The notes under the pieces: generated by a model
Databases searched by the model: none
What the model was told of the DNA's origin: nothing
What the model saw: only the letters and a program-made list of their open reading frames with translations
Assembly: GCA_002441305.1 (NCBI GenBank)
Contig: DJVT01000009.1
Coordinates: forward strand, 345,210 to 409,209
Origin: Candidatus Omnitrophica bacterium UBA6249
Lineage (GTDB): Bacteria > Omnitrophota > Gorgyraeia > Gygaellales > Profunditerraquicolaceae
Length of the DNA: 64,000 bases
Direction: 5' to 3'
Shown here: positions 35,163 through 52,714 of the stretch, piece by piece
Numbering within the stretch: position 1 is the stretch's first letter
Layout: every line of letters starts with the position of its first letter
Position numbers and translations under genes: made by a program

Positions 35163-36349
35163 TACCGGCCCCTCAATCTATTGGAAATCTCTCTCTGTAA
35201 ATCAAGAATGCGTTTATGCCTGTCTTCCTTTTCTTCCTGGGTAAGGGAATCGGCCAGTTTAGAAGACTGCGTATTCGGCCTGGGGGAATATTTGAATATA
35301 TATGAAGCGTTAAACCCGACGTTCTTGAGCAAGGCACAGGTCTCCTGGAAATCCCCCTCTGTTTCTGTGGGGAAACCTACGATAATATCCGTAGTCAATG
35401 TACCCCCTGTAACGATTCTACGATAAGAGTCGGTTAAAGCCAAGTACTCTTTTACGGAGTACCCGCGGTTCATAAGCTTGAGTATCCTGTCCGAACCGGA
35501 TTGCACCGGAAGATGCAGGGATTTCTCCAGCTTCTCCAGGTCCCTGATGGCGCGGAAAAATTCTTCATTGGCGTCTTTAGGGTGGGAGGTGAAAAAATTA
35601 AAACTCTCCAGCCCTTCCAGCGCGTTTACCTCTTCAAGAAGCCCCCTGAAACCGGAATCCCCCTGGCAATAAGCGTTTACATTCTGCCCCAGGAGGGTAA
35701 TCCTGGATATACCCGAACCCAATGCCCGGAGGATCTCCTCTATAACGCTGGACTGCGCGCGGTGGCGCAATGGCCCGCGCACATACGGAACAATACAATA
35801 CGAACAAAAATTTGAACAGCCCTCGGAAATAACCACGTAAGCATGACTCTTGTCCGCGCGGAAAGAAGTATGATAGACCTCATCCGGCCTCTCCTTGGCC
35901 GCAGTCTCCCAGACCTTCCGCTGGAATAACCCCTCATCCTGGCTCTGTCCTAAAGCAAGAAGCCGGTCAAGAATCGAGGGTATTTTGCCGATATCCTGCG
36001 GCCCCACCACAAAAGAAATCGCCGGGTCGCGCTGGAACGCCTTGTCTTGATAATTCTGCGCCATGCACCCGGCCAACCCGATAATCTTACTGCCTTTATA
36101 ACTCCCGATCAGGCTCCAGACACGGTCCTCGGCATGCTTGCGTACGGAGCAAGTATTAAAGATCACGACATCGGCGTCTTGATCGGAATCACAGACCCGG
36201 TAACCGGCACCCTGGAGAAGCCCGCAGATAATCTCGGAATCCCGGACATTCATCTGGCATCCGAAGGTACGCAAAAGCACACGTAGCTTCTTCGGGCTTT
36301 TGCCTCCGGAATCGCCTGTATTGTCGTCTTTTCGTTCGTTTTCAACCAT
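35162..36349 (-). CDS. miaB: tRNA-i6A37 methylthiotransferase MiaB. The 5' end (36278-36349) is supplied by the integrated element.
   Basis: 395 aa with the UPF0004 domain LRTFGCQMN, the radical-SAM CSNFCSYC motif and a TRAM C-terminus. The first 24 codons lie to the element side of the 20-bp att core and overlap the integrase 3' end in another frame. Confidence 0.85.
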   Translation of the reverse strand: MVENERKDDNTGDSGGKSPKKLRVLLRTFGCQMNVRDSEIICGLLQGAGYRVCDSDQDADVVIFNTCSVRKHAEDRVWSLIGSYKGSKIIGLAGCMAQNYQDKAFQRDPAISFVVGPQDIGKIPSILDRLLALGQSQDEGLFQRKVWETAAKERPDEVYHTSFRADKSHAYVVISEGCSNFCSYCIVPYVRGPLRHRAQSSVIEEILRALGSGISRITLLGQNVNAYCQGDSGFRGLLEEVNALEGLESFNFFTSHPKDANEEFFRAIRDLEKLEKSLHLPVQSGSDRILKLMNRGYSVKEYLALTDSYRRIVTGGTLTTDIIVGFPTETEGDFQETCALLKNVGFNASYIFKYSPRPNTQSSKLADSLTQEEKEDRHKRILDLQREISNRLRGR

Positions 36350-37935
36350 TTCATCCCCTCTTCATAGCAAGTCTTCCAAGGCTCATTCAACTCAAACTTC
36401 ACGATTTCCTGATTCTGGATAGTAATCGACTTAAAGACAATCCGCATGAACGTCTTTATAAGGTAGTCCAATTGGTGATTGTCGCTTTCGGGCGTACTGC
36501 GCAACCTTAAAAGGAAATCCTGCGTCGCTTTCACCAAATTGACGGAATTGCGCTTGTCCAGAATCTTAAGATGAATGGCCTTGATATCCTGCTTTAGTTT
36601 TTTCTCCTCATTACTTAAAAGCTCGGCTCTGTCCTTATAAAGCCCCATATTTATTTTGTCTTCTGAAAATAATTCGTATATAGCCCTTTGCTTCTCCACG
36701 TTCTTTTTAAGAAGCGCTTCCTTCTCCTCCAACTGCTCCATATATACCCGCTCCGGCTCAGAAGCGTTAAGCCGAATCATGTCGCCTAATTCTTCCAGCA
36801 CGTGAAGATTTTTTCTAATAACTTCAACGATATCCCAGACCTGCTTATTGATAGCATCAGCAGTCACGGATTTATTGTTGCACTTAATATACCGAATCCC
36901 TCTAGACGAACATCTATACCACGGACGCCTCATTTTGGTGCGGTGATTAACGATATGCGTCATCCCGCGATAATTACCGCCGCATTCATTGCATTTTAAT
37001 ATACCGGAAAGATGATAAACATTATTCCTGAATCTAACTATGCCATTAGTGCGGTTTCGCTTGAGAAGCGTGGAAGCCTCGTCAAACTCCCTTTGCGAAA
37101 TAATCGGCTCGTGCGTATTCGGGACCTCGATGATCTTGGAAGGATCATTCTTGATATAGCAATATCCCTTTCCCTCGCCATTTTTAGTCTTGATCTTTGT
37201 ATCGTAACGCCGCTTATTCCAGACCAGCATTCCCAAATACACTTTATTTTTAAGGATATCCGAGATGAATTTAGTATAAAACTTCCCGCCCTGCCGCGAA
37301 GGGATACCAAGCATGTAATAATGCCCGGCAATCTGCGAAGTGCTCTTGCCATTTATATACATCGAGAAAATTTCTTTGACGATTTTCGCTTCTTCAGGGT
37401 GGACTTCCAGTTTCTTGGCTTCCTTATTATAACGATAGCCATACGGCGCGTAACGCGCTCCCTGCCAATGCCCCCGCTTAACACCTACAACCATACCCGG
37501 AAAAACGCGCTCAACTAAACGATTACGCTCAAATTCCGCGCAACTGCCAAGCATTTGAATCGCCATTTTGCCCGCGCTCGATGTAGTATCAAACGGCTCA
37601 GTCGCTGATTTATAGCCAACACCCAAAGAATCAATCTCCTCAAGCAATCCTAACAGATCCTTGAGCCGACGACTTAAGCGATCTTGTTTATACACCAAGA
37701 CCAAATCAAACTGCTTATTGCGGGCATCGAAGAGAAGCCTCTGTAATGCCGGTCTATCCATATTGCCGCCGGAATAGCCGTCATCCATATAAACATCCCG
37801 GCCCGACATACTGCAAAAAACATCCCAGCCGAAGTTCTTCGCATATTGCAAAAGATACGTTCTCTGCACCTCCAGCGAAAATCCTTCGCGAGCTTGATCC
37901 TCTGTGCTAACTCTTGTGTATAACGCTACCCTCAT
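36250..37935 (-). CDS. Large serine recombinase (integrase 1)
   Basis: 561 aa with the resolvase catalytic domain ALYTRVSTEDQ, a recombinase domain, the zinc ribbon CNECGGNY...CSSRGIRYIKC and a coiled coil. Its last codons cross the att core. Confidence 0.9.
   Translation of the reverse strand: MRVALYTRVSTEDQAREGFSLEVQRTYLLQYAKNFGWDVFCSMSGRDVYMDDGYSGGNMDRPALQRLLFDARNKQFDLVLVYKQDRLSRRLKDLLGLLEEIDSLGVGYKSATEPFDTTSSAGKMAIQMLGSCAEFERNRLVERVFPGMVVGVKRGHWQGARYAPYGYRYNKEAKKLEVHPEEAKIVKEIFSMYINGKSTSQIAGHYYMLGIPSRQGGKFYTKFISDILKNKVYLGMLVWNKRRYDTKIKTKNGEGKGYCYIKNDPSKIIEVPNTHEPIISQREFDEASTLLKRNRTNGIVRFRNNVYHLSGILKCNECGGNYRGMTHIVNHRTKMRRPWYRCSSRGIRYIKCNNKSVTADAINKQVWDIVEVIRKNLHVLEELGDMIRLNASEPERVYMEQLEEKEALLKKNVEKQRAIYELFSEDKINMGLYKDRAELLSNEEKKLKQDIKAIHLKILDKRNSVNLVKATQDFLLRLRSTPESDNHQLDYLIKTFMRIVFKSITIQNQEIVKFELNEPWKTCYEEGMKWLKTNEKTTIQAIPEAKARRSYVCFCVPSDAR
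36258..36277. repeat. att core copy 1 (CATCCGAAGGTACGCAAAAG), the junction between miaB and element 1
   Basis: Identical 20-mer to 54295-54314. It lies inside miaB codons LLRTFGC and inside the last codons of integrase 1. Confidence 0.8.
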
Positions 37936-38113
37936 TAGTATCCTTTAGTGTCTCCCGCCATTCTTTAATCTTGGCGATACACTCGTCCGTAAACACGGGC
38001 CAGTCTTTGTAGTCGCGCTTGGGCTTAACCCAACCCTTGCGGATCCAATTGATCATGGTCTGCCGGTGAACACCCAGCTTTTTTGCCGTCTCTGTCATGG
38101 TGTAAGTTTTCAT
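37907..38113 (-). CDS. Excisionase-type (MerR-like, HTH_17) DNA-binding protein, a candidate recombination directionality factor
   Basis: MKTYTMTETAKKLGVHRQTMINWIRKGW...; 51 of 58 aligned residues are identical to the element 2 copy. Its 3' end overlaps the integrase start by 29 nt. Confidence 0.65.
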   Translation of the reverse strand: MKTYTMTETAKKLGVHRQTMINWIRKGWVKPKRDYKDWPVFTDECIAKIKEWRETLKDTNEGSVIHKS

Positions 38114-38139
38114 AATTGGCACCCTCTAAGATTAGTGCC

Positions 38140-38168
38140 CAGTATACCGTATTATACAACCCTATACA
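38140..38168 (-). promoter_or_regulatory. Promoter candidate for xis-int (conserved in both elements)
   Basis: The minus strand reads TTGTAT (38168-38163), a 17-nt spacer, then TATACT (38145-38140), with an internal TATAAT. The same block recurs near 56705-56735 in element 2. Confidence 0.4.
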
Positions 38169-38365
38169 AGGGTTTTCTTCTCCGCGTCATACGAGGACAG
38201 GAACATTTTTGACAACAACTCAATGCCTTCAAAAAAGGATTTACGCGCCTCCTGAATCTCAATGCTGGATAGGCCGCGGCCTTTTAGCTTTATCTCTAAA
38301 GCATCCCAGCCCCTAAGGCTAACCGCCTGATCATTATTTGTGCGTACATCCTTGCTCATTTTCAC
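38162..38365 (-). CDS. Conserved small element protein, unknown function
   Basis: 67 aa. SLRGWDALEIKLKGRGLSSIEIQEARKSFFEGIELLSKMF aligns with the element 2 ORF at 56734-56928. Confidence 0.55.
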   Translation of the reverse strand: MKMSKDVRTNNDQAVSLRGWDALEIKLKGRGLSSIEIQEARKSFFEGIELLSKMFLSSYDAEKKTLV

Positions 38366-38373
38366 CGCTACCC

Positions 38374-38456
38374 ATTAGGACATTAGGACATTTTTCGTGT
38401 CGTATGATGTCCGGTTTCACTGACATACTGACATAACTCGTGTCAGTGAATGTCAG
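38374..38456. repeat. Short-word arrays upstream of the small ORF (operator/iteron-like)
   Basis: ATTAGGAC occurs twice in tandem (38374-38391). CTGACAT occurs twice (38420, 38428), followed by inverted TGTCAG twice (38441, 38451). Confidence 0.6.
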
Positions 38457-38600
38457 TCAAAACACCCCTCAAAACCATCGAAATACCCCAAAATTGACAC
38501 TTTTTCCGCAAAGAATGCCTGTTTTGAGCCTTCCTGACCACATTTTGACGCTCTCCGGATAACCCCATATGACATGACATCACTTTTTCAAAATTTTAGA

Positions 38601-38712
38601 TCACTGACAAACTGCGCCTCGCCCGACCCTCACCCGACACCGGCTGCCAAGGACCCGTAAACAAAATGCGTGCGGAGGAGGGCGGAAGGTGTCGCCCTCT
38701 GCCAGACGCATT
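38601..38712. repeat. Conserved GC-rich motif copy 1 plus adjacent hairpin
   Basis: TCACTGACA..GCGCCTCGCCCGACCCTC..AAGGACCC (38601-38656), with an invariant 18-mer at 38614-38631. A hairpin AATGCGT...ACGCATT follows at 38665-38712. Confidence 0.8.
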
Positions 38713-38781
38713 TATCTGGCAAAACTTTCGCGATGGAAGAAGTTAACAAGAACATCGATCCGGTTCCTCCGCATTAGATTG

Positions 38782-39465
38782 TTACTCAGCAACCAACTCT
38801 ACCTGCTCCACTGGCTTTGCGGGCTCAGGCCGATATTTTTTCATAAGGTTATTAATCTCCTGCTCGAGGTCGAAATGCGATACCCAGTGATCCCTGACAC
38901 GGATATCCTCCTCGATATCTGCCGTTGTCGGCCTGCGAAGCTCGGCGATACCCTTTTCTTTCTCAGCATGAAAAATACTGTGCGGCTCTGTTCCTAAACT
39001 GGGGCTAAACGCGGGGTAATCTTCCAAATGCCGTCGGGTAGTCTCTGGATGACCGTAGATAGCAAATGCTAAGGCAAACAACCGGCCCTTCGCCTTCCAC
39101 AGATCGAGGATCAACGTCTCCTTCTCTCTGTTCATGGCTTTACGGTCTTCGATGAGCCTTTTCATCTCTTCGTCCCGCTTCTCCGTCAACGCTTCCTCCA
39201 TTTTCGTCTTGAGTTTAGCGAGGCTCTCGGCAACGACATCGAGATTGATATTGCATTCCTCCAACGCCAAATCCGCTAGCTTCACAGCCTCGGGATTAAT
39301 CCTCTCGCCGCACATAACCCGGCTTCTGATTTCTTTTGCTTTCTCTTTAGCTTCAGTTTTTTCCTGCTCGCAGAGCTTCTGCTTTTCTTCAAGCGCCACA
39401 ATCTGCTCGGCGATCTCTTCCGGCGTGCTTTTGCCCTTTAACACGTTTAAAAAATTCAGTTTCAT
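38782..39465 (-). CDS. Coiled-coil hypothetical protein (variable slot of element 1)
   Basis: 227 aa, charged and helical. I recognise no motif. It occupies the position held by the Nu1-like gene in element 2. Confidence 0.5.
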   Translation of the reverse strand: MKLNFLNVLKGKSTPEEIAEQIVALEEKQKLCEQEKTEAKEKAKEIRSRVMCGERINPEAVKLADLALEECNINLDVVAESLAKLKTKMEEALTEKRDEEMKRLIEDRKAMNREKETLILDLWKAKGRLFALAFAIYGHPETTRRHLEDYPAFSPSLGTEPHSIFHAEKEKGIAELRRPTTADIEEDIRVRDHWVSHFDLEQEINNLMKKYRPEPAKPVEQVELVAE

Positions 39466-39559
39466 TTTTCGTTCCTCCTGTATTTGTTGATTTGAATTAC
39501 TATTCTTCTGCCTTGGTTTTTACGTTTGCCTACATCTTTCACCTCCCCTTTTTCTACCC

Positions 39560-39772
39560 TCTGAACGTTGTGAACATTGACTACTCTTATTTTTCTAACT
39601 GCCTCTAATGACCCCCTACAAGGGGCTTTCCCTCTTTCTCTTTTCTTTTTTAGAAAAGGAAAGAAACGACATTCACAATATTCATGAATCCCACATCCTC
39701 TTGTAGATTATGAGGATAATCCGTGACCAAAGCTGTGAACGTAGCCCGTCCACAGTCACAATGGTCACACCT
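39560..39772. repeat. Iteron-like word pairs and an AT-rich tract downstream of primase 1 (replication origin candidate)
   Basis: TGAAC occurs at 39562 and 39571, TTCA(C/T) words at 39671 and 39680, and GTCACA at 39755 and 39764. Each pair is 9 bp apart. An A/T-rich imperfect palindrome lies at 39630-39665. Confidence 0.4.
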
Positions 39773-42136
39773 TTAATACGGCCTTGGATCGTCTTCATCA
39801 CAAAAATCCTTTCCTTGTTCACCTTCATTCACGCCTTCGTTCACACTGCCTTTAAAAAGCGAATTACCCTTTATCCTGCGTAAGATAACCAGCTTCCTGC
39901 CGGTACCGGCTTCACGCTTTTCCGGACGTAAAATATCAATGCCCACACTGCGCATAACCGGAGCGATGCGCATAAGCTCTGAACCAAGTGCCCGGGCGTT
40001 GCCGGGTAGCGTCTTATCAAAACCGGTTTCCGGCTTAATGCTCTCAAGCAGTGTGGTCGCAGAACCCGCCCACTCGCCTCCGTTTGACTCCACAAGATAG
40101 ACCAACTTTTGCGCGAATGTGCTCTCTTCTGCGGTGTCCTCCCATTTATGATCAACCGATTGCTGATACCGCTTAAAAAATTCCTCCCGGGAGAATCCCA
40201 AATGCTGTGACAACGCCGCACCCCACTGCGCGAAATCCGACATCCTAAAACGCTCATGCCCGGACACACCGTCAATAACTGCCATTGCGTTTGAAATTGC
40301 CGAAAAGAAACCGCCGAGAATACCGGGAAGCGAAGCCCGCCATTCGTAAGCGATGACTTTCTCCGGCCTTGTCTCTTTTAAGATTGGTATATCGAAGATA
40401 ACTGAACGGTCTAATAGATCCGGACGGCATATAGCACTGCCGATACCGTTTAAAACGAAACATCGGCGATAGGTCCTGATGAATTCCTCATCATTGGTGT
40501 AAAGCGATCGCTTCATATCTCCCTCGCCTGTTACTGCCCGGCATAAAAAATCACTGAACCACTCAGACACGCGAGAAAAATTGTCGAAATTATTCAACCA
40601 GTGTTTATCCGCGATCATCTGCGCCTGCTCTAAATCCTTAGGCACAGAAATGGACATCACCTTGGAAGGATCGCACAGGCTTTTAATCATCCGGGAGTTG
40701 TTAGACTTTCCTGTTCCCTGCTCGCCTATCTGCACTGGTATGACATGAGGAATATCGGGAATAAAGAAAGTCGCTACCGCCGTCATGAATAGACAAGCGT
40801 CATCTTTATTGATATTGCAAAACTCCAAAAGCTTTTTAGGATCAGAGCCCTTGACCGGAAAAACCTGCTCTGCCTGATGGGGGTATCGCTTGAATATTGG
40901 AGGCAGGAAAACAACTTCCCATCCATCTTTAGTAATAATGACCCCGCGCCAGTCTTGAGTGGTCAGGTCATAATAAATAGCCCCGTTATGCCAACCGACA
41001 CGGTTATATAGCTCAACCTGCCTTCCGCCTTCGCACTTCGCCTCAATCTGAACTTTCGCCTGCTTTATAGCTTCGCTCCCGGGCGGATGGCCGAAGTCCT
41101 GCCGGTAACGCAGAGCGCAGTAATTCCTGAAGCGGGAACTGCTTGTCTGGCAAACCTCAAGATGTTTATCAAACGGAAGAACAACGTAAGGATTACCTTG
41201 TTGGTCGCGCAGATATTCGCTAACCGTTTCTTCACAGTCACGGGTGATAATTTCGCCTTGGGTAAGTTTCTTCTGCTTCGGAGATGTTGACGCCTCAAAT
41301 ACATTTTCGGTGTCTTGGACGGCCTTCTGAATAACGCTTTGCCCGTAAGTCTTGCCGTCACCAAAATGTTTCTCATCCCACTTCGGCCGCATAAGCCCCG
41401 ACTGCCGGAACAACGCATCCATCTGCCCGGCGTCTTTGCTTGTCCAAAACGCCAGCTTGTTGCACAACGCCAGATCCGCCTCACTTTGAGAGGGATAATC
41501 GGTCTGCCACTGGCCCGAATAAAGCCGCTGAAACCTCTCCGCGTCTTTACTCTTGGCGATCAAGGTAAGAATGTCGTCTGCGGGCCCTTTATCCACAAAC
41601 CGGCTGAATATATCTTTAAGCGCATCAGTGCACTCGTTAAGCTCAGCCGGATAATTTTCAAGGCGGTTGCCGGTAACGGTAAAGAATCGGCCATTGGTAT
41701 AAATCTCCAAGCCGATCTTGGAAATTTTGCAGGCCCGGGCGATCTCGCCTTTACAAAGGATATGAATACCTGTGCCGCTTGGCGAATATTCGGAATATGA
41801 ATTAATCGCCTTGAGAATCTCAACCGCATACGGCGCGATTGATCCGTCTTTGACGCAGTGGTCAATATCCACGCCCACATACGGCGGCTGAAACATAAAG
41901 CCAATGCCCGCGTAGTTACGCTGAATCGCCAAATCTAAAGCCATTTCAAAATCAGTCCATGTTGCAGGATCGTTGCTTTTCGCAGGCGCGCCGGTCATAA
42001 CATTCATCGGAATCTTGTCAACACGGCCATTGTTCTCTCTGGTGACATAACCCACCCACGCCTTTTGAGACCTAATCTCGGCGGGAATAATTGAAGGCAT
42101 CTTGTTAAAATCTATCATTGCTGTTTGCATCGCCAC
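39773..42136 (-). CDS. Prim-Pol (AEP) primase fused to a DUF3987-like P-loop helicase
   Basis: 787 aa with the N-terminal AEP motifs VGVDIDHC and SPSGTGIHIL, and the PriCT-like block YPSQSEADLALCNKLAFWT...LFRQSGLMRPKW. The Walker A motif is GEQGTGKS. Confidence 0.8.
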   Translation of the reverse strand: MAMQTAMIDFNKMPSIIPAEIRSQKAWVGYVTRENNGRVDKIPMNVMTGAPAKSNDPATWTDFEMALDLAIQRNYAGIGFMFQPPYVGVDIDHCVKDGSIAPYAVEILKAINSYSEYSPSGTGIHILCKGEIARACKISKIGLEIYTNGRFFTVTGNRLENYPAELNECTDALKDIFSRFVDKGPADDILTLIAKSKDAERFQRLYSGQWQTDYPSQSEADLALCNKLAFWTSKDAGQMDALFRQSGLMRPKWDEKHFGDGKTYGQSVIQKAVQDTENVFEASTSPKQKKLTQGEIITRDCEETVSEYLRDQQGNPYVVLPFDKHLEVCQTSSSRFRNYCALRYRQDFGHPPGSEAIKQAKVQIEAKCEGGRQVELYNRVGWHNGAIYYDLTTQDWRGVIITKDGWEVVFLPPIFKRYPHQAEQVFPVKGSDPKKLLEFCNINKDDACLFMTAVATFFIPDIPHVIPVQIGEQGTGKSNNSRMIKSLCDPSKVMSISVPKDLEQAQMIADKHWLNNFDNFSRVSEWFSDFLCRAVTGEGDMKRSLYTNDEEFIRTYRRCFVLNGIGSAICRPDLLDRSVIFDIPILKETRPEKVIAYEWRASLPGILGGFFSAISNAMAVIDGVSGHERFRMSDFAQWGAALSQHLGFSREEFFKRYQQSVDHKWEDTAEESTFAQKLVYLVESNGGEWAGSATTLLESIKPETGFDKTLPGNARALGSELMRIAPVMRSVGIDILRPEKREAGTGRKLVILRRIKGNSLFKGSVNEGVNEGEQGKDFCDEDDPRPY

Positions 42137-42351
42137 GTCCGTATTTGGTTAAGTATTGCCCGGAGTTTACTGTCGTTATATGGCACGCGACAGGTATAAA
42201 GCCACATCTCGACCTCTGAGGCGCGAAACATAACTTCCCCGCTTGGTAGCCTAAAATGCGGGATAAGCCAATTCTTCACCAGATAGTCAATCTGGCTCCG
42301 CCTTAGATTGAGATGAGTCATAAGCCGTTCAACAGTCAATAAGCCTTCCAT
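42115..42351 (-). CDS. AlpA/excisionase-family HTH regulator
   Basis: 78 aa. LLTVERLMTHLNLRRSQIDYLVKNWLIPHFRLPSGEVMFRASEVEMWL matches the HTH_17 pattern. It overlaps the primase start by 22 nt. Confidence 0.6.
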   Translation of the reverse strand: MEGLLTVERLMTHLNLRRSQIDYLVKNWLIPHFRLPSGEVMFRASEVEMWLYTCRVPYNDSKLRAILNQIRTWRCKQQ

Positions 42352-42460
42352 GTGATATCCTCCTCGCGAATTTCTTTTCTACTTGGAGTTTATCACTGGA
42401 AAAATCATGCCTTCCCAGCTTTACCCAAATTTGCTCAAATTTTTACATTGATTGTGCGTA

Positions 42461-42488
42461 AAAAAGAAAAAACGCCCTAAGGCGTTTT
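42461..42488 (-). terminator. Rho-independent terminator after the 203-aa gene
   Basis: The minus strand has the stem AAAACGCC / GGCGTTTT with a 4-nt loop, followed by a T-run. Confidence 0.7.
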
Positions 42489-42522
42489 AGTGGGAATTAC
42501 TGCTATTTTTGTTTTGGAAATA

Positions 42523-43134
42523 CTACTGAGAGGAGTCTTGATCGTCAGCGGTAGGAAGTTCTTCGGCGGCGATCTGCCATTTGCTTCCGATCTTGCGGGC
42601 TAATAACTGATTATTCTCAAGCCAGTTTTGCATGGTCTTACGGCTGATATTAAAAACCTTGGCCCAATGCGTGATTGGATACGGGCTTGACCAGCCGCTA
42701 CGCGGGATTAATTTCGGTCTTATTCTAAACTCAGAAGACATTATCCTGTTTCTTGCACCCATAATACGGTGCATCATCCCAAGTTGCATATCTTTCGTCT
42801 TTTCACACCATTCATTGTAGCCTCCGGGAAGCCACGTTGGAAGCTCAGGGATAACCGGTGTTTCATTCGGCCCGAATAGATATTCTATAATGGGGATAGC
42901 CGCTTGATTGGCTTCCTGATAAAGATTTCCCAAGTCAGGCTTTTTTACTTTATGCTTCTTTAGCGTTTTCTCATACTTGTGGAATACATCATCTTTTGTC
43001 AGCCAATCATAGGAATCGATTGATGAAAGACCGAGCCTTTCAATAGTCAACACCCACTCACTGGAGGCCTTCTCATACGCTGACCACTTTTTCCAGAACT
43101 CCGTAACGCAATCGAGTTTATTCTTTTTATCCAC
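42523..43134 (-). CDS. Conserved 203-aa element protein with C-terminal excisionase-type HTH
   Basis: It aligns along its whole length with 60633-61244 of element 2. The C-terminus reads ITHWAKVFNISRKTMQNWLENNQLLARKIGSKWQI. Confidence 0.7.
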   Translation of the reverse strand: MDKKNKLDCVTEFWKKWSAYEKASSEWVLTIERLGLSSIDSYDWLTKDDVFHKYEKTLKKHKVKKPDLGNLYQEANQAAIPIIEYLFGPNETPVIPELPTWLPGGYNEWCEKTKDMQLGMMHRIMGARNRIMSSEFRIRPKLIPRSGWSSPYPITHWAKVFNISRKTMQNWLENNQLLARKIGSKWQIAAEELPTADDQDSSQ

Positions 43135-43179
43135 AACGGATTATCCTAATCATTGTTAAAATGACCAACATCGCTTCAT

Positions 43180-43462: not shown

Positions 43463-43681
43463 TCAGTCAGCTTTTTCTATATCTTTTTCCTCCTCTGAAA
43501 CACGATTATCTTCACCGCATTGAATAGACAGGACAAGCGGCCCCTTTGCAAAATTCATACAAATTACACCCTGCGAGTCAACAACACCGTTTATATCGGT
43601 ATCTTCCGATAACTGCCAGCCACTATTTTTTAATGTGGCTAATATTTTCTTCGCCTCTTGAATATGATTTTTATCGAGCAT
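43463..43681 (-). CDS. Small hypothetical protein translationally coupled to the DpnI-like gene
   Basis: 72 aa from the internal ATG (MLDKNHIQEAKKILATLKNSGWQL...). It overlaps the DpnI-like stop by 11 nt. Confidence 0.4.
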   Translation of the reverse strand: MLDKNHIQEAKKILATLKNSGWQLSEDTDINGVVDSQGVICMNFAKGPLVLSIQCGEDNRVSEEEKDIEKAD

Positions 43682-44468
43682 TTTCTTCCTTATGCTCCAA
43701 CGGCGTAAGCCGATACTTGCCACGACCGATGAATTCCAAATACCCTTTATCACGTAAAATTTGCAATTGCTGCCTGATCTTATCCTTGATGTGTTTATTG
43801 CCAGGATAAGCTCTCTTTAATTCCTCTTCAAATTTATAAACATCATCTAACAAAAAGTCTTTTTTGTCTAAACGGTCGATGCATTTCATAACCGTTAATG
43901 TCCACCCTCTCGATTCAGATCGGGAAGATTCCCTTAAAAATAGAGTCCTCCGCCATTCAGCCGACACCTTGTCTTTTGGCGAAACCTGATGATCACGTAT
44001 AAAATATATCTTCCCGGCCTCAGGGATAGAACGAAGCAGAATATTGCAACCAACCCAATGGCTCCGCCTAGCCTCAGGTGAGAGCGGTTTTCTCATCTCA
44101 ATAATATCGGCCGTAAAAAAATGTTTTGGGATTACCAAAAAATTTACAACCGCCCATGATGTAATCGAATAATTCAAAAAGAAAAAATTTGGATTATTTA
44201 GATCTTTTAGTCGCTCGAGCATCGTCTCATAAGCGCCATCGACTACTTTATCTCCGATTTTGTCTTTTTTGCTCTTTAACTCAAATTCCTCTCTACAACT
44301 TAGGCAAAAGAAATCCGCGACAGGCCTGCTATTCGGAAATTGCCTAAGAGAAAGCCCACAATTGGGACAATATATCTCTCGCTCAACCCAGTTCTCGGTA
44401 AGAACTCTGGCCTTCTGAGAAGGACTTTTGTATGCCGCCGATAGGCGCTGATCAAGATCGAGGTTCAT
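43671..44468 (-). CDS. DpnI-like methyl-directed type IIM restriction endonuclease (Dam-replacing family)
   Basis: 265 aa that aligns throughout, from memory, with S. pneumoniae DpnI. Shared blocks are SQKAR.LTE.WV....YCPNCG, NRPVADF.C..C.EEFELKSKK, NPNFFFL, SRGWT and NHIK.KIRQQLQILRDK...F.GRGKYR. Confidence 0.85.
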   Translation of the reverse strand: MNLDLDQRLSAAYKSPSQKARVLTENWVEREIYCPNCGLSLRQFPNSRPVADFFCLSCREEFELKSKKDKIGDKVVDGAYETMLERLKDLNNPNFFFLNYSITSWAVVNFLVIPKHFFTADIIEMRKPLSPEARRSHWVGCNILLRSIPEAGKIYFIRDHQVSPKDKVSAEWRRTLFLRESSRSESRGWTLTVMKCIDRLDKKDFLLDDVYKFEEELKRAYPGNKHIKDKIRQQLQILRDKGYLEFIGRGKYRLTPLEHKEENAR

Positions 44469-44622
44469 ATTGGATAGCCGTAGCCAGTCTCCTTAAAACC
44501 GAATAAATATGATCACAATCCTCACCGGCTTCTAGCCAGTTTTTCTTTTCATCATCCCAGCAATAATCCAAGACACGCCTAATATCATCTTCCACCTGCT
44601 CATTCATTATTATTGATCGCAT
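44452..44622 (-). CDS. Possible 56-aa ORF overlapping the DpnI-like start (below the ORF-track cutoff)
   Basis: My own translation is MRSIIMNEQVEDDIRRVLDYCWDDEKKNWLEAGEDCDHIYSVLRRLATAIQYEPRS. Its stop lies 17 nt inside the DpnI-like gene. Confidence 0.3.
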   Translation of the reverse strand: MRSIIMNEQVEDDIRRVLDYCWDDEKKNWLEAGEDCDHIYSVLRRLATAIQYEPRS

Positions 44623-44634
44623 AGGCCTCGTTGA

Positions 44635-45768
44635 TCACCTTTTTTCTTTTGATGCCGAAGAATCTTTTAATGCCCGCTCAATTTCTTTAATTGTCGGCAA
44701 ACTTGATTTCAATTCCTTAGGTAATGCCCGTGTAATTTGATATTCAGACACCCCGATGGCTTTGGTTACGCCTTTCAAAGCATATTCGGCAATAATCTGA
44801 TTCTTATCCTGACACAGGATAAGTCCTATCGTTGGCCTATCTTGTTCATGACAAAGTTGGGCGTCTACCACATTACAATAAAAATTCATTTTTCCCGCGT
44901 ATTCTGGTTTAAATGGCCCCCGCTTGAGATCTACGACAATGAAGCACCGCAAACGCAAGTGGTAAAATAAAAGATCCAGATAAAATTCTTTCGCGCCTAT
45001 GTTCAAGAGATACTGTCGGCCTACAAATGCAAAGCCCTGCCCTAACTCAAGGAGGAATTTCTCAACGTGTGCGAGAAGGCCCAACTCAAGTTCTCGCTCA
45101 TGAAAAGGTTCCGATAAAGTAAGAAAGTCAAAGATATACGGGTCCTTTAAACTTTGCTCTGCAAGATCCGATTGAGCTGGCGGCAATGTCCGCGAGAAGT
45201 TATGAATCACTTTTCCAGAACTTCGATGAGCTGCTGATTTAATCATTGCGCTCAATCTATCGCGACTCCAGCCCTGTTCTATCGTCTGCTGCATATACCA
45301 CAATCTATCATCAAGATCACTTACTTTCTCCATGAGAAGCACATTATGAAACCATGGCAATTTTGCAGCAACCTGCTGCAAAATTAAAGAATGCTTCTGA
45401 CGAGCTTTATTTTTTGCAGCACCCTGCTGCATAATTAACGGCTTCCCATATTCCCGGGCAAAGCGAATCATATACCCAATATTTCTCTCCGAAAAACCCT
45501 TTACCTCTGGCATTTCATTCCGAATATCCCTGGCTAATTTAGGAATAATTGCCGCGCCCCAACCAGCTCTTGCTTGACGTTCAATAATGGCCCGTCCGAT
45601 ATCCCAATAAAGGACAACCATTTCATTATTGACAGCGAACGTGGCTTTAACTTGTGCCGACCGAATACGCTCTTTCACCGCTTTTAAAAAAACAGGATAG
45701 TCGGAAGGCAACCCTGATAACTTTTTAACAGATAGTGAATTACTTGATGGCGACATCTTTTTTGTCAT
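44635..45768 (-). CDS. DUF1016 / YhcG family PD-(D/E)XK nuclease-domain protein
   Basis: 377 aa with the typical YhcG N-terminus (..RIRSAQVKATFAVNNEMVVLYWDIGRAI...). The C-terminal nuclease core reads YLDLLFYHLRLRCFIVVDLK. Confidence 0.8.
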   Translation of the reverse strand: MTKKMSPSSNSLSVKKLSGLPSDYPVFLKAVKERIRSAQVKATFAVNNEMVVLYWDIGRAIIERQARAGWGAAIIPKLARDIRNEMPEVKGFSERNIGYMIRFAREYGKPLIMQQGAAKNKARQKHSLILQQVAAKLPWFHNVLLMEKVSDLDDRLWYMQQTIEQGWSRDRLSAMIKSAAHRSSGKVIHNFSRTLPPAQSDLAEQSLKDPYIFDFLTLSEPFHERELELGLLAHVEKFLLELGQGFAFVGRQYLLNIGAKEFYLDLLFYHLRLRCFIVVDLKRGPFKPEYAGKMNFYCNVVDAQLCHEQDRPTIGLILCQDKNQIIAEYALKGVTKAIGVSEYQITRALPKELKSSLPTIKEIERALKDSSASKEKR

Positions 45769-46397
45769 AAATCATCCTCTAAATTAGGAATCGTATGGAC
45801 TACTACTCCCTGAGCCTGAAAATCATTTCCCGCCACAATAGGTTTATGATTTTTATTCGTCGACCGTGGTTTTAATACCACCGTATGGGCAGAAGCCGAA
45901 TATTCTTTGATTGTAACCTCATTATCGACTAAAGCAACGATCGCCTCTCCGTTTTCGGCGGTTCGTTGTTTCTTAACCAGAATAAAATCCCCATCGTTAA
46001 TTCCTTTTTTATTCATAGAATCACCCTTGGCGCGCAAAAGGAAGTATTTATGCGGAGGTTTAGCGAGTTTCGTTGAGACAGGAAATACAGCTTGAATATT
46101 CTCTTCAGCAAAAATCGGCATTCCACATGGGGCCGTACCCACCAAAGGGATATCAATCGTTTGAATATTAGCCTTATCCTCAAAATCCCGGACGATTTGT
46201 AAAGATCCGATCGGGCTCCTACGAAGAATACCCTTCGAGATGAGTTTATTAACTAACAGAGAAGCAGATCGAGGTGAGCGGTATCCCAGCGTCTTCATCA
46301 AATCGCGCAATGAAGGACATCGACCAAAATTAATTATCGAGCTTCTTATTTCTTTTAGGGCAATATTTTCTTTATCTGAAAGCGTTAATGTTCTCAT
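45765..46397 (-). CDS. LexA-like repressor (winged-helix plus S24 peptidase)
   Basis: It has a LexA-type DNA-binding N-terminus (PSLRDLMKTLGYRSPRSASLLVNKL) and an S24 core (GDSMNKKGINDGDFILVKK, catalytic Ser/Lys context). I use the ATG at 46397. It has a 4-nt overlap with the DUF1016 gene. Confidence 0.8.
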   Translation of the reverse strand: MRTLTLSDKENIALKEIRSSIINFGRCPSLRDLMKTLGYRSPRSASLLVNKLISKGILRRSPIGSLQIVRDFEDKANIQTIDIPLVGTAPCGMPIFAEENIQAVFPVSTKLAKPPHKYFLLRAKGDSMNKKGINDGDFILVKKQRTAENGEAIVALVDNEVTIKEYSASAHTVVLKPRSTNKNHKPIVAGNDFQAQGVVVHTIPNLEDDL

Positions 46398-46414
46398 GTA
46401 TACAATTGTATACA
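46397..46414. promoter_or_regulatory. Perfect 18-bp palindrome abutting the lexA-like start (operator candidate)
   Basis: TGTATACAATTGTATACA is two self-complementary TGTATACA octamers joined by AT. It has an SOS-box-like TGT...ACA periphery. Confidence 0.6.
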
Positions 46415-46687
46415 ATATGAATAAGAAGTCAATGATTTTTTGCGAATTTTATAAGACAAATGTCAGTAGTGCCAAATGTCCATTTGCCAGCAAATATTAA
46501 ATTCTCGTGGGCATTTTCATGTCCATCCATGTCCATCAAAATGCCCTTTTTCGGCCTTCCCGGGAGTCCCTAAAACACCCCTAAAATCGCCTATTTCCCG
46601 TCGCTGGACGCTCATTTTGGCCGGGTTGACCACTTATGCCCAAACCCCAAAAGTGATGGACATGGACATCGATTTTTTTAACCACTA

Positions 46688-46815
46688 TCACTGGCTCCTT
46701 GCGCCTCGCCCGACCCTCACCCAAGCCCCCTTCCAAGGACCCAGTGCCACTTAACAACATATTTCGTAAATACAAGAATCCTCCCGCAATAAGGCATTAC
46801 GGAAGGATTCTTGTA
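46688..46815. repeat. Conserved GC-rich motif copy 2 plus adjacent hairpin
   Basis: TCACTGG..GCGCCTCGCCCGACCCTCACCC..CCAAGGACCC (46688-46742). A hairpin TACAAGAATCCT...AGGATTCTTGTA follows at 46771-46815. It is preceded by GGACAT/ATGTCC word arrays at 46461-46536 and 46656-46669. Confidence 0.8.
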
Positions 46816-46911
46816 AAAACATTACTTCTTTCTCTTTTTAGCCTTCTTCTTATTTGCGACCTTATCCCCCATCGGTTCTCACCCCCCTTCTATTTTTTAA
46901 CGCTTATAATA

Positions 46912-47328
46912 TCAAGAGAGAGCTTCGCCGTTCGCTTCCGGTTGATAAATGATTTTTTCAACCTGCAGTTTCGCAACACCTGCAGGCACTTTCCATTCAA
47001 TAATATCCCCAACGCTATATCCGAGTAATGCCGTACCAATCGGCGCTAAGATTGAAACTCTCCCCTGACTAGCATCGGCCTGATCGGGGAAAACCAATTG
47101 ATACGTTATTTCTTCTTTTGTGTTTAAATCTCGCAAATGAACTTCCGAGCTCATCGTGATAATGTCCTGCGGAATATCTTGAGATTTTATGATTTTGCCC
47201 CTGTTCAGCTCAGCTTCTAAATCCTGCAAATACTTCTCTTCTTCTTTTTTAAATTGTCTCGCAACCATTATCAATTCCCGTAATCTTCTCATATCATTAT
47301 CGGTAATATATATAGTTTTACTTGTCAT
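46912..47328 (-). CDS. rnk: Rnk / GreA-GreB family regulator (nucleoside diphosphate kinase regulator-like)
   Basis: 138 aa that aligns from memory with E. coli Rnk. Shared blocks are ...VVTM.S.V...........L V.P........VS.LAP.G.ALLG..VGD.I.W..P.G......V....YQPEA. Confidence 0.75.
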   Translation of the reverse strand: MTSKTIYITDNDMRRLRELIMVARQFKKEEEKYLQDLEAELNRGKIIKSQDIPQDIITMSSEVHLRDLNTKEEITYQLVFPDQADASQGRVSILAPIGTALLGYSVGDIIEWKVPAGVAKLQVEKIIYQPEANGEALS

Positions 47329-47345
47329 TTTTACCCCCTCCCTTT

Positions 47346-47663
47346 TTATCCAACAACACGGTTGACATTCATTACAAAAAGAATACCTTGTCCCGGCTCT
47401 TTTAAGTTACCATGTTTTTCCAGTACTTTGATGAGTTTCTCTCTGTTAACATCCAGCGTCAGAAGAATTAAAATCTCTCTAGATGAACCAATCTGCAAAC
47501 CAATTGTGCGTCTACCAGCTTCTGTACACAGCCCCTTACCGGAAAGCACAGTAGCGCCAAAAATCCCAGTGTCTTTAAGGACTGGCATTATTGCCTTTAT
47601 TTTTCCTTTCGGAAGAATAGCCACAATCAGTTTAAGCATCCCGAACCTCTTTCTCTTCATCAT
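47346..47663 (-). CDS. PII-like small signalling protein (beta-alpha-beta x2 pattern)
   Basis: MLKLIVAILPKGKIKAIMPVLKDTGIFGATVLSGKG..., then a T-loop-like segment, then ...GQGILFVMNVNRVVG. The probable start is the internal MLKLIV at 47639. Confidence 0.5.
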   Translation of the reverse strand: MMKRKRFGMLKLIVAILPKGKIKAIMPVLKDTGIFGATVLSGKGLCTEAGRRTIGLQIGSSREILILLTLDVNREKLIKVLEKHGNLKEPGQGILFVMNVNRVVG

Positions 47664-47985
47664 TTCATATCCCCTTTAACTTGTTTTAAATATCCAGCCA
47701 ATAGATCTCATCGACCAATCTGATATGTTCTAGCATCTTCCGAAAGTTTATAAAAACCACGGCTCAAACCGTAACATTAAATTTTATGCCAAATTATCAT
47801 TCGGATTACGGTATAAGCCTGAAAATAATCGAATTCAGCAATAGGCCTCCAGTGTTTTTCTGAGATTGCAGGAGGCCCATTGATCCATGAAGGTTTATCG
47901 TCCCTTTCGTTTTTTACCTTTTTTTGATCGCCACATAATCCCCATCGCCATTCACCTCCTTTCAAGGTCAATGTCGGACAGATTA

Positions 47986-48441
47986 TTAAACGTTTAATAC
48001 TTCTTTCACCCTTCGTTTAATATATTCCATATTAAAAGGCTGATATACCCACTCTTGCACCCCCAATTCAATTAACTTCTCTTTGCCTCTGATATCTTGT
48101 AACGATGACACCACAATAACGCAGGTCCTTAAGCTCATCTTTTTGATTTGCCGCATTATACTTTCGCAATACTCAATCGTCGTTGTAACCCCAACAATAA
48201 CCATATCCACGCGCTTTTGAGCTAACAACTCAAATATTTCCGAATGGCTGGACAGAGAAACCGTATGATAGCCGGATTTTTCCAGAAGCTCTCTAAGGCC
48301 CCGGCCGGGATCATAGTATTTTTGAGCGATCAAAATGGTCAGTTTCGTTCCAATTTTATAGTCCTGCCTCTGTCTAAATAACCGGATTAAGACGCGCCAC
48401 ACCTCTGACATCCTCAATGGTATAAAAAGCACCTTGATCAA
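47986..48441 (-). CDS. Receiver-like domain protein lacking the phospho-acceptor Asp (pseudo-receiver)
   Basis: It has the REC-type pattern LTILIAQ...VDMVIVGVTT...CVIVVSS...KP-like FNM. The canonical DD pair and phospho-Asp are replaced (QK.. and G). The start is uncertain because the ORF overlaps the upstream gene. Confidence 0.5.
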   Translation of the reverse strand: MIKVLFIPLRMSEVWRVLIRLFRQRQDYKIGTKLTILIAQKYYDPGRGLRELLEKSGYHTVSLSSHSEIFELLAQKRVDMVIVGVTTTIEYCESIMRQIKKMSLRTCVIVVSSLQDIRGKEKLIELGVQEWVYQPFNMEYIKRRVKEVLNV

Positions 48442-48910
48442 ATTTCTTTATTATGCCTAAAACGTTATCTAACAACTTGCGCCGGACAATGACAAAAACA
48501 ATCTTCACCGGCCCCGCTGTCCCCTGTCCGTCAATCGTCGTTGCGCCGTATCCTTTGGAACGAAAATATCTCAATAAACTAGCCGGATTTTTATTCGTTA
48601 TAAACTGGACAGCTAAATTGCCTATGGCGATTTTTCGTTCGATTGTAATACCTACAAAAGTGCCCATACTAAAGCCGCCCGCAAAAGCGATATAGCTGAT
48701 CGGGTTATTCAAATTCTGCATAATTTGCGATATGCCGATAAGCCAAACAAGCATCTCAAAAAATCCAATAATAGCAGCTAATGCCCTTATCCCTCGGCTG
48801 ACAAAAATAATCCTGACAGCAGCCATACTGACGTCTGCCGCCCGCGCGAGAAAAATTAAAATAGGAATCAATATTGGAACAAAATCATTTTGCGGAATAA
48901 CAAAAGACAT
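48374..48910 (-). CDS. UPF0316 family membrane protein with DUF2179 domain
   Basis: 178 aa with three TM helices (...ARAADVSMAAVRIIFVSRG...) and a C-terminal soluble domain (GYGATTIDGQGTAGPVKIVFVIVRRK). Confidence 0.6.
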   Translation of the reverse strand: MSFVIPQNDFVPILIPILIFLARAADVSMAAVRIIFVSRGIRALAAIIGFFEMLVWLIGISQIMQNLNNPISYIAFAGGFSMGTFVGITIERKIAIGNLAVQFITNKNPASLLRYFRSKGYGATTIDGQGTAGPVKIVFVIVRRKLLDNVLGIIKKFDQGAFYTIEDVRGVARLNPVI

Positions 48911-48957
48911 GTCTAAAATACCTCCTTTTTAATTCTCGCTACTTAACACTGGCTAAG

Positions 48958-49140: not shown

Positions 49141-49142
49141 GA

Positions 49143-49871: not shown

Positions 49872-49943
49872 TTAGAATTCCCGTCTTTTATTCGTTTAAT
49901 AAGCAGCAGTAAGGCTGGGAAAGCGTAAAATTGCGAATAATTC

Positions 49944-52697: not shown

Positions 52698-52714
52698 TAT
52701 TTGCTCCTAAGAAT

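Follow-up and report, generated by a model that had tools for sequence, protein, structure and literature searches.

Phage satellites such as the phage-inducible chromosomal islands (PICIs), which include the cos-type SaPIbov5 and the Gram-negative EcCICFT073, combine an integrase at one end, a small helix-turn-helix (HTH) regulator and a primase/helicase with an adjacent origin. They have no virion genes, carry accessory or defense cargo, and contain either a helper-type cos site or a small terminase (TerS) of their own. We describe here two islands of similar make-up, with a candidate cos site, that lie in tandem in a stretch of 64,000 nucleotides (the window) of Candidatus Omnitrophica bacterium UBA6249 (contig DJVT01000009.1, positions 345,210 to 409,209), whose host proteins are named Candidatus Omnitrophota by NCBI. 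Element 1 is a bounded element of 18.0 kb (window 36258-54296). Element 2, in tandem to it, measures about 25.2 kb and reaches from 54295 to about 15.5 kb beyond the window end. We think it probable that the two belong to one family of integrative, self-replicating Candidatus Omnitrophota islands that spread as phage satellites. Omnitrophota are widespread, mostly ultra-small and uncultivated, and their routes of gene transfer are essentially unknown. We found no paper on Omnitrophota satellites, on insertion of a large serine recombinase (LSR) element into miaB, or on the 18-mer site described below.

Gene content of the islands and the nearest described systems

The core of element 1 (36250-43134) encodes, in this order, an LSR, proteins of 71, 67 and 227 aa, a PrimPol replicase of 787 aa, and proteins of 78 and 203 aa. 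From 54230 on, element 2 encodes an LSR, a 60-aa HTH protein, a GIY-YIG nuclease, proteins of 71 and 208 aa, a replicase with PrimPol, D5_N and P4-type primase/helicase parts, a DUF5659 protein and a homolog of the 203-aa protein. The core DNA of the two elements is 70-78% identical, and the minus strand carries every gene from 30 to 64 kb of the window. Scans with Pfam and PHROG confirmed the gene list and coordinates of both cores as given in an initial annotation of this DNA (Table 1), including the integrase type: all three LSR domains of Pfam are above cut-off in both integrases, and that of element 1 matches the integrase family PHROG 95 at 6e-111. The replicase of element 1 matches the NrS-1 HBD domain (1e-30) and a PHROG DNA primase family (2e-84), and that of element 2 the P4-family primase/helicase model TIGR01613 (7.7e-81). 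The two replicases are 33% identical overall with only the PrimPol half conserved, and in IMG/VR the PrimPol has relatives of only 29-43% identity, all in phage contigs of 25-46 kb. Each replicase is indeed preceded by a small regulator gene, for an HTH_17 protein of 78 aa in element 1 and a DUF5659 protein of 76 aa in element 2. The iteron-like repeats that had been placed beside both replicases are confirmed in part: element 2 has three direct and two inverted copies (58036-58007 and 57927-57911), and element 1 only short imperfect repeats.

Complete element 1 contains no capsid, tail, lysis, relaxase or type IV secretion system (T4SS) genes in the Pfam and PHROG scans. We recovered the remainder of element 2 from other contigs (L043, L044 and L162; L numbers are our labels for related contigs and loci) by exact-protein look-ups, up to the native miaB 5' end. 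The complete element, including the about 15.5 kb outside the window, likewise has no virion, lysis, relaxase or T4SS genes (Pfam, PHROG and precomputed Pfam). What had been noted for element 1 and the visible part of element 2 therefore extends to the part not seen before. No homologs of phage large terminase (TerL), portal or capsid were found in the window or in 31 related loci. A coupling protein was likewise not found in element 1 or complete element 2; an oriT cannot be excluded by sequence alone. The islands have a replicase with an adjacent candidate origin and lack structural and lysis genes, as PICIs do.

The 208-aa protein of element 2 had been called a candidate Nu1-type small terminase, and this call withstood profile, PDB-profile and synteny tests. 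A profile of 13 TerS homologs has as its best four PDB matches 7lwr (4.6e-5), lambda gpNu1 1j9i (9.2e-5), 6hn7_B (1.2e-4) and 7lw0 (3.3e-4), all of them DNA-binding domains of terminase small subunits. In the viral contigs that reach that far, TerS homologs (30-61% identical) are encoded directly upstream of a gpA-type TerL (GpA_ATPase 5e-78, GpA_nuclease 3e-68), which is followed by a lambda-family portal. No TerL follows terS in element 2 itself, as expected for a satellite. TerS homologs, the only packaging-hijack genes recognized, are encoded in element 2 and in the relatives L073, L075 and L081; element 1, L072, L074 and an island in Candidatus Velamenicoccus archaeovorus encode none. TerS had no match in 50,697 isolate phage records. 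Together, the intact TerS call and the lack of any relaxase, T4SS or virion module in the recovered DNA support the satellite-like reading that had been proposed for both islands.

A further likeness to PICIs is that the TerS family profile also matches the TerS chain of the RppC-TerS complex (6hn7_B). However, the islands have a serine and not a tyrosine integrase, insert inside a protein-coding gene with replacement of its 5' end, and measure 18-25 kb against about 10-15 kb for PICIs. No Stl-like divergent repressor, Ppi, Cpm or Rpp was recognized in them. They also differ in their host phylum, Omnitrophota, and in combining a Nu1-type TerS with a cos-like site; to our knowledge, the TerS-encoding Staphylococcus aureus pathogenicity islands are of the pac type and the cos satellites have no TerS. 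With P4, whose helper is P2, the islands share an AlpA-like small HTH protein, a candidate cos in common with a helper, a defense hotspot beside the core and, in the replicase of element 2 only, the P4-family primase C-terminal domain. In contrast to P4 they use a serine integrase, the replicase of element 1 has no P4-type domain, and Sid, Psu, Delta and Epsilon were not found with Pfam and PHROG.

Closer in integrase type are the PICI-like elements (PLE) of Vibrio cholerae and the module 3 group of the virion-encapsidated integrative mobile elements (VEIMEs), which like the islands have an LSR, are oriented towards defense and carry no virion genes. Our family scans, which were generic and held no PLE-specific profiles, show no protein homology beyond the recombinase superfamily, and target gene, replicase, helper type and host phylum all differ. 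PLE replication starts from an initiator of the RepA_N type, as opposed to the PrimPol of the islands. VEIMEs are defined by recovery from particles, whereas the islands are known here from sequence alone. PLE and 91% of the marine VEIME module 3 elements use serine recombinases (PMC9618062). The earlier argument that a serine integrase by itself sets the islands apart is therefore weakened; they are a new lineage, not a new principle, since serine-integrase satellites are already known. New are the occurrence in Omnitrophota, the use of a miaB codon as target with replacement of the 5' end, the Nu1-type TerS together with a cos-like site on a satellite-like island, and the two-site architecture. 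Current satellite finders key on tyrosine integrases and would overlook such elements.

Two further groups resemble the islands in part. The staphylococcal cassette chromosome (SCC) elements, such as SCCmec, have an LSR at the end of a conserved housekeeping gene, a helicase/PrimPol module and variable cargo, and form tandem composites at one att site. The islands resemble them as LSR and PrimPol/helicase cassettes that form tandem arrays, but SCC targets the 3' end of rlmH and the islands the 5' end of miaB; the islands moreover have TerS and a phage-shared site, and the sequences are unrelated beyond domain families. The dusA-specific integrative islands use a tyrosine (DAI) integrase and dusA as target, the 5' end of which the element restores (PMC4482086). 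Insertion in the 5' end of a tRNA-modification gene is common to them and our islands, which use a serine recombinase and miaB instead.

Integration into miaB and spread between hosts

The 20-mer CTTTTGCGTACCTTCGGATG occurs twice in the window, at 36258-36277 and at 54295-54314. Past the first copy (junction J1) the sequence continues as the rest of a MiaB/RimO-family gene (CQMNVRDSE...), and the first 30 codons of this gene, with the N-terminus MVENERKDDNTGDSGGKSPKKLRVLLRTFG, are contributed by element 1. At the second copy (J2) the end of the integrase gene of element 2 is joined to a different arm, GCCGTTGTCTACCTTATAGACACAGC, instead of miaB. Each element provides a new MiaB N-terminus; since the integrase-proximal arm brings this replacement, miaB stays intact. 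A metagenome scan with the arm GCCGTTGTCTACCTTATAGACACAGC returned 11 contigs in which the arm and the adjoining Na+/H+-exchanger side are 94-100% identical to the window. On their far side stand 10 different miaB-type 5' ends, for example ATGAAAAAAATCTTTTTGATAACCTACGGATG followed directly by GCCGTT, and in one case the 3' end of another LSR gene. The switch falls at a TG, which precedes the P' arm, in J1, J2 and 11 of 11 far-end junctions, and all of these are hybrid junctions without target duplication, as a 2-bp crossover would leave them. Judged by the junctions, the integration point of both elements is the TG of the Cys codon in the MiaB motif T(F/Y)GCQMN. Because the 11 far-end junctions all lie at a TG, element 1 is bounded at 36258-54296 and tandem arrays recur; a second element can insert beside a resident one. 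The same junctions led us to reject the possibility that the DNA between 46.9 and 54.2 kb belongs to the host. No far-end junction was found within 10 kb of the integrase gene in relatives, whose elements must therefore be longer than 10 kb. Element 2 ends at the native miaB 5' end ATGGTTAAGGAACGAGTCTATATTAGAACTTTCGGCTG, about 15.5 kb beyond the window end. At this far end (L162:1272-1380), TCAAATGGATGCAGTTCTACGCTACGGCTGTGCCGTTTTTGAG comes after the native miaB 5' end ...ACTTTCGGCTG; it resembles a second, partial junction of the type xLRYGC + GCCGTT 30 nt on and is possibly the scar of an earlier insertion. For the element 1-type island of Ca. V. archaeovorus described below, the attP of the circular form is predicted to read ...CCTTCGGATG joined to GCCGTTGTCTACC....

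The family model TIGR00089 (372 bits, cut-off 251) confirms the initially proposed miaB target as a methylthiotransferase gene of the MiaB/RimO family. The MiaB equivalog model scores 341.5 bits, just under its cut-off of 355.3, and a TRAM domain was not detected in the 395-aa target ORF (window 35162-36349). In Ca. V. archaeovorus (L167:11587-14637) the target gene is followed by a SPOR/TPR gene and then by miaA (IPPT), and this proximity of miaA supports a role as MiaB.

Insertion at this codon also affects the integrase. The integrase ORF of element 1 reads through the att core and stops within the first few codons of the miaB part, whereas the final 24 codons of the element 2 integrase come from the P' arm of element 1. 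We observed that in the integrated P-O-B' form (element 1) the protein ends in ...SDAR, and that in the P-O-P' form (element 2, or any circle) the far-end arm (P' arms of L151-L161) adds a tail of 24 aa, GRCLPYRHSMADLAEALIGAD, to it. As the tail differs between the two forms, integration rewrites the integrase C-terminus. The change from a 24-aa tail in the circular or tandem form to 3 residues in the integrated form might contribute to directionality. Integrases such as these, whose att sites are short, defined and embedded in a conserved codon context, may be of use as tools as well.

In 24 of 24 related genome loci, from metagenome-assembled genomes of Omnitrophota, Elusimicrobia and Margulisiibacteriota, the integrase gene (product at least 40% identical) adjoins miaB, and the host genes beyond are syntenic. 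The integrase end of L071 is 99.87% identical to that of element 1 over 2383 nt up to the core, with identity stopping at 36249, although its MiaB is only 43% identical to that of the window. The far-end arm of element 1, together with its cargo, is joined to the 10 different miaB-type 5' ends in 8 metagenomes. An element 1-type island also sits in miaB of the closed genome of Ca. V. archaeovorus (CP019384.1), with its integrase end at about 687.5-689.2 kb. Its identity to element 1 is 95.5% across the 6.9-kb core and 99.2% from GreA to site 2; it has both copies of the site described below and carries different cargo. The island family moves between distantly related hosts and is actively spreading defense systems and regulatory cargo among them; the MiaB proteins of these hosts share only 43-56% identity.

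A DNA site shared with phages and what it may do

A 61-nt repeat is found three times in the window. Its core is an invariant 18-mer, GAGGGTCGGGCGAGGCGC, exact in all three copies (3 observed against 0.06 expected by chance). Conservation extends over about 90 nt, in the order GGGTCCTT, a G-rich box in which GGGCGAGG recurs with a period of 11 nt, AGTGAT, a run rich in A and two TGTCNN repeats; a second set of the same TGTCNN repeats follows 130-190 nt further on. The exact 18-mer is present in 42 IMG/VR contigs. These all belong to one phage family, and in every case the 18-mer closely precedes a ParB/methyltransferase (MTase)-TerS-TerL(gpA)-portal gene series. The gene order of this family is replication genes, site, ParB_N/N6_N4-methylase, TerS, TerL(gpA), portal and capsid, and about 250 nt around copy 2 of element 1 are homologous to an intergenic region of its L008-type members. 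TerL homologs (70-96% identical) are recorded in genomes named as Omnitrophota and Margulisiibacteriota, and site-bearing phage contigs come from the same samples as element 2 (3300001592 and 3300037067). The closed Ca. V. archaeovorus genome (CP019384.1) holds, beside its element 1-type island, a prophage of the motif family at about 1.917-1.939 Mb, with an LSR (26% identical to that of element 1), a sigma-like gene, HTH_36, the site, ParB/MTase, TerS, TerL, portal and tail genes; its site has one mismatch to the 18-mer and TGTCAAT repeats. The search for a helper suggested in the initial annotation was thus positive, in that a DNA site is shared with a gpA-terminase phage family that occurs in the same samples and as prophages of Omnitrophota. 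The 18-mer is a sequence tag that finds both phages and candidate satellites and gives a concrete phage-linked mechanism to test. As Ca. V. archaeovorus grows in a limonene-degrading methanogenic enrichment culture, the satellite hypothesis is directly testable there.

The repeats that follow the 18-mer fall into five classes (TGTCAG, TGTCGT, TGTCCA, TGTCGG and TGTCATGGTCA). Class membership coincides exactly with TerS identity but does not follow Rep identity, which overlaps between classes. A comparison of the L001 with the L008 phage class gives identities of 72% for TerL and 74% for ParB/MTase against only 36% for TerS, and the recombinant L025 has ParB (97%), TerL (94.5%) and portal (98.5%) of the L001 type together with its own TerS (73%) and its own repeats. 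Among the islands, those with terS have private repeats, GGTTGCATGTTCAATAAGATTGAA in element 2 and L081 and CGTGTCATGGTTGTCAC in L073, and the TerS-less elements have TGTCATGTCAT in common. The TerS-less L079 has a one-mismatch box and TGTCAAT-type repeats, both as in the Velamenicoccus prophage. Since the 18-mer is invariant and the repeats track TerS type, we read the site as cos-like, with a cosN box and cosB repeats. In phages lambda and 21 the conserved TerL reads the same cosN, and cosB varies together with Nu1; by analogy, the pattern of 18-mer, TerS and repeats would be the lambda/21 situation. On the premise that the islands are satellites, we lean towards a cos-like packaging site.

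Several other roles for the site were considered. A replication origin is disfavored, as separate iteron-like repeats lie nearer to the replicase genes and the 18-mer does not change among phages whose replication modules are unrelated. A known RNA family was rejected after an Rfam scan of 35-64 kb was empty at E<=1, as was a structured RNA, for which RNAalifold gave -5 kcal/mol and z-scores of about 0 on 39 distinct site copies. The ends of contigs gather around the site, but their positions vary (-146 to +80), and we take them for assembly breaks and not for virion ends. The 50,697 isolate phage records, and thus cultured phages, gave no match to the site. On the G-rich strand, the minus strand at 38614-38660, 46701-46745 and 57701-57745, the site has at least four G3 runs separated by short loops (GGGGG-N6-GGG-CGA-GGG-TC-GGG) and could form a G-quadruplex.

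The course of events under the satellite reading might be as follows. Insertion of the circle by the LSR takes place, as the junctions show, at the Cys-codon TG of T(F/Y)GCQMN. The small HTH protein encoded beside the LSR would be the directionality factor for excision. The PrimPol-helicase would replicate the circle from the iteron-like repeats 3' of its own gene. The 18-mer, or GC box, and the flanking TGTCNN repeats would make up a lambda-like cos site, in which the box would be the nicking region of the gpA-type TerL and the repeats the TerS binding sites. Elements without terS, such as element 1, would be packaged by the complete terminase of a ParB/MTase-TerS-TerL(gpA)-portal helper phage, and elements with their own Nu1-type TerS and private repeats, such as element 2, would redirect the helper TerL to themselves. 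Beyond the 203-aa protein gene, the slot would hold defense systems and regulatory genes of benefit to the host. Excision, replication and encapsidation of the elements are what we infer here. In its fullest form this would make the islands the first Omnitrophota phage satellites, with a packaging strategy new to the literature: some with a Nu1-type TerS and a private cosB that captures the helper TerL, others with two cos sites that differ in TerS specificity and so allow one island to ride two helper lineages, and all with a serine integrase that ties the cycle to a codon of an essential gene and whose C-terminus is rewritten by integration; we put this combined picture forward tentatively and think that it is rather unlikely to hold in every part.

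A number of observations weigh against satellites with a cos site. Neither the elements nor the far-end arm of element 1 are found in IMG/VR, and a single metagenome scan gave no circular (P-O-P') junction. With 18 and 25 kb both elements are larger than classical satellites, and no gene for capsid-size redirection was recognized. The 18-mer with TGTCATGTCAT, the repeat class of the first site of element 1, has no match in IMG/VR, so that no phage of this class was found. Two directly oriented site copies, as in element 1-type elements, are hard to fit to a simple cos model, and in the phages a 1.3-kb gene separates the site from terS, unlike in lambda. The prophage that shares the Velamenicoccus genome with an island has TGTCAAT repeats, a third class. 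TGTCA-type repeats also occur in origin-like positions, which leaves the protein that binds them unsettled.

The two sites per element, the gene between site and terS in the phages and the origin-like TGTCA-type repeats leave room for a regulatory reading, in which the elements are satellites but the site is a control region of the late operon. It would be a promoter that depends on an activator or a sigma factor and has operator repeats, and the elements would have copied it so that late activation by the helper switches on terS or the genes for the 67-aa protein, the Xis-like protein and the integrase, much as P4 Psid is switched on by Ogr of P2. Two copies per element are no problem for a promoter, and the site always stands at the start of the phage packaging/late operon, oriented like the genes downstream; the second repeat set falls at the beginning of the first late gene or within it. 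A sigma-70-like promoter is not predicted at the site, the hairpins upstream of it end the preceding genes, and the Velamenicoccus prophage encodes a sigma70_r2-like protein just upstream. However, the 18-mer is invariant across phages with differing regulators and replication modules, which better fits a conserved TerL, and the repeats follow the TerS type and not the flanking genes. The private repeats of the TerS-encoding elements would uncouple them from the activator of the helper, and downstream of copy 2 the LexA-like gene (45765-46415) has sigma-70-like promoters and an operator of its own. We regard a control region, the main rival of the cos reading, as a possible but doubtful explanation.

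Less probable, and in our view unlikely, is that the islands are SCC-like cassettes or integrative mobilizable elements that are transferred by conjugative mobilization, transformation, vesicles or generalized transduction, with terS and the phage-like site as leftovers of phage ancestry or as regulators. The LSR, primase/helicase, cargo and tandem arrays do follow the logic of staphylococcal SCC, and the lack of terS in element 1, the absence of the elements from IMG/VR and their 18-25 kb, more than classical satellites measure, would fit as well; but in neither complete element was a relaxase, oriT-type or T4SS protein found, terS is an intact ORF that several relatives keep, and an 18-mer that stays exact in elements with diverged flanks argues for a current function. 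Decaying prophage remnants trapped in miaB are very improbable: PrimPol, TerS and LSR all have phage relatives, but the core ORFs are all intact, the same architecture recurs in many genomes, and the element is 95-99.9% identical in hosts with MiaB of 43-56% identity and is joined to 10 different host flanks.

Cargo and smaller features

Table 1. Features of elements 1 and 2 (window coordinates)
Feature	Element	Position	Strand	Remarks
Junction J1 (right, P-O-B')	1	36258..36277	-	Core CTTTTGCGTACCTTCGGATG; crossover TG 36259-36258 in MiaB TFGCQMN
Large serine recombinase, 561 aa	1	36250..37935	-	Resolvase 8e-34, Recombinase 2e-22, Zn_ribbon_recom 5e-11
MerR/HTH_17-type protein, 71 aa	1	37907..38122	-	Candidate recombination directionality factor (Xis-like)
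Conserved protein, 67 aa	1	38162..38365	-	Homolog of element 2 56734-56949
Control region upstream of 67-aa, Xis-like and integrase genes	1	38366..38560	-	Arrays of TGTCAG, TGTCCT and inverted CTGACA heptamers
Shared site, copy 1	1	38565..38665	-	Candidate cos; GGGTCCTT...GC box, 18-mer 38631-38614, AGTGAT, A-rich stretch, TGTCATGTCAT 38579-38569
All-helical protein, 227 aa	1	38782..39465	-	Long coiled-coil hairpin; AlphaFold pLDDT 85.7
Candidate origin (weak)	1	39560..39772	-	Short imperfect GTGAC/GTCAC/TTCAC repeats just 3' of replicase gene
Replicase, 787 aa	1	39773..42136	-	PrimPol (NrS-1-like) N-terminal half, unclassified C-terminal half
HTH_17 protein, 78 aa	1	42115..42351	-	Ahead of replicase; AlpA-like match weak
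Protein of 203 aa	1	42523..43134	-	C-terminal HTH_17/excisionase-like (ANT-like) domain; last core gene before cargo slot
Variable cargo slot	1	43671..46415	-	DpnI-like methyl-directed restriction enzyme, PDC-S02 (YhcG) nuclease, LexA/S24-type repressor
Shared site, copy 2	1	46500..46750	-	18-mer 46718-46701, TGTCCATGTCCAT; about 130 nt on, inverted pair ATGGACATGGATGGACAT 46537-46518
Far-end cargo module, 7.5 kb	1	46765..54175	-	GreA/Rnk-like, P-II-like, response regulators, PhoU, histidine kinase, Na+/H+ exchanger
Junction J2 (P2-O-P1')	1/2	54269..54314	-	att core 54314-54295 and element 1 far-end arm GCCGTTGTCTACCTTATAGACACAGC; end of element 1, start of element 2
Large serine recombinase, 626 aa	2	54230..56110	-	79% identical to that of element 1
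Xis-like protein, 60 aa	2	56138-56320	-	
Stand-alone GIY-YIG nuclease, 97 aa	2	56360-56653	-	
Homolog of 67-aa protein, 71 aa	2	56734-56949	-	
Small terminase, Nu1 type, 208 aa	2	56906..57532	-	N-terminal winged HTH; PHROG 57, 2e-20
Shared site, copy 3	2	57640..57760	-	18-mer 57718-57701, then private repeats GGTTGCATGTTCAATAAGATTGAA; about 170 nt upstream of terS
Iteron-like repeats, candidate origin	2	57911..58036	-	Three ATGACA(A/G) directly after replicase stop, two inverted TGTCAT
Replicase, 713 aa from ATG at 60176	2	58035..60176	-	PrimPol, D5_N, P4-family primase/helicase
DUF5659 protein, 76 aa	2	60181-60411	-	Ahead of replicase
Homolog of 203-aa protein	2	60633-61355	-	
Start of cargo	2	61228..64000	-	C-terminal (sensor) part of split Dsr1, running off window

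Both elements have a cargo slot at the far end, as was first noted, and their cargo consists mostly of defense systems. The G+C content falls along the window: the first 36 kb have about 0.50, the stretch from 36 to 42 kb has 0.46-0.50, and the part past 43 kb about 0.36-0.44. In element 1 the DpnI-like enzyme (43671-44468) is matched at 1.5e-114, and L072 and L167 have other cargo in this slot. A ParB_N/N6_N4 DNA methylase is the first gene after the site in every phage of the motif family (for example L001:2221-3519). The DpnI-family enzyme might cut methylated DNA of the helper or of competitors. The start of the LexA/S24-type gene is overlapped by a perfect palindrome, TGTATACAATTGTATACA (46397-46414), the sole copy in the window, which is probably the gene's own operator; we found no evidence for this repressor as master regulator of the core, the palindrome being present only at its own gene. 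In L072 and L156 an extra ORF of about 90 aa, which the window lacks, lies between site copy 2 and this gene.

Elements with different backbones in other hosts have the far-end module at 99.8% (L155) or about 99% identity (L156). The point at which L155 departs from the window is directly behind the GreA terminator hairpin at 46765, and a distant relative, L086, has a 71% identical exchanger together with GreA-like genes. Beyond the window, element 2 encodes SIR2, type I restriction-modification (R-M), AbiEi/AbiEii and DUF2971 (PDC-S31), as well as cupins, a hybrid-cluster protein, Rrf2, TrmO_N, DsrE, hemerythrin and a transpeptidase-like protein. Its Dsr1 is split in two genes, one for the SIR2 domain (302 aa) and one for the remaining 1037-1072 aa (L162:15446-19464). 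The 10 kb upstream of the integrase gene in 11 relatives hold mostly R-M, methylase, SIR2/TIR and regulator families.

Among the small core proteins, a Xis-like HTH gene is present in both elements as described at the outset, but its label rests on sub-threshold HTH matches. The 71-aa protein of element 1 has a weak HTH match under the Pfam cut-off and matches PHROG excisionase families at about 1e-5, and it adjoins the integrase gene in relatives down to about 50% identity. Likewise, the regulator gene before the replicase of element 1 does encode an HTH_17 protein, which is 97% identical in L072, but its designation as AlpA-type depends on a match of E 9e-4, under the cut-off. The 67-aa protein has no family match in Pfam or PHROG and is kept in L071-L084; the repeat arrays of the control region upstream of it are also found in L072, L074, L077 and L167.

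The 227-aa protein has no match in Pfam, PHROG or PADLOC and 115 homologous clusters, none of them named. Its model gave only generic coiled-coil matches in a Foldseek search of the PDB (E>0.4), and we rejected it as a divergent TerS (hhalign probability 0.1%). An island of another type, L165 (CAZUJQ010000009.1), contains a divergent HTH_3 repressor/Cro-like pair, a Prim-Pol/D5 helicase, a homolog of the 227-aa protein, HTH_17 and R-M cargo. As the homolog follows the PrimPol/helicase gene there, the family of this protein is replicase-associated beyond the miaB elements. In the Ca. V. archaeovorus prophage (L166:7700-7770), three GTGACA-N4-6-TGTCAC palindromes inside the 3' end of the HTH_36 gene resemble an origin within an initiator gene, and their TGTCA core is common to the repeats of the packaging-side site. 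On the host side of the window, the minus strand at 2774-2977 carries genes for tRNA-Val(CAC) and tRNA-Met(CAT).

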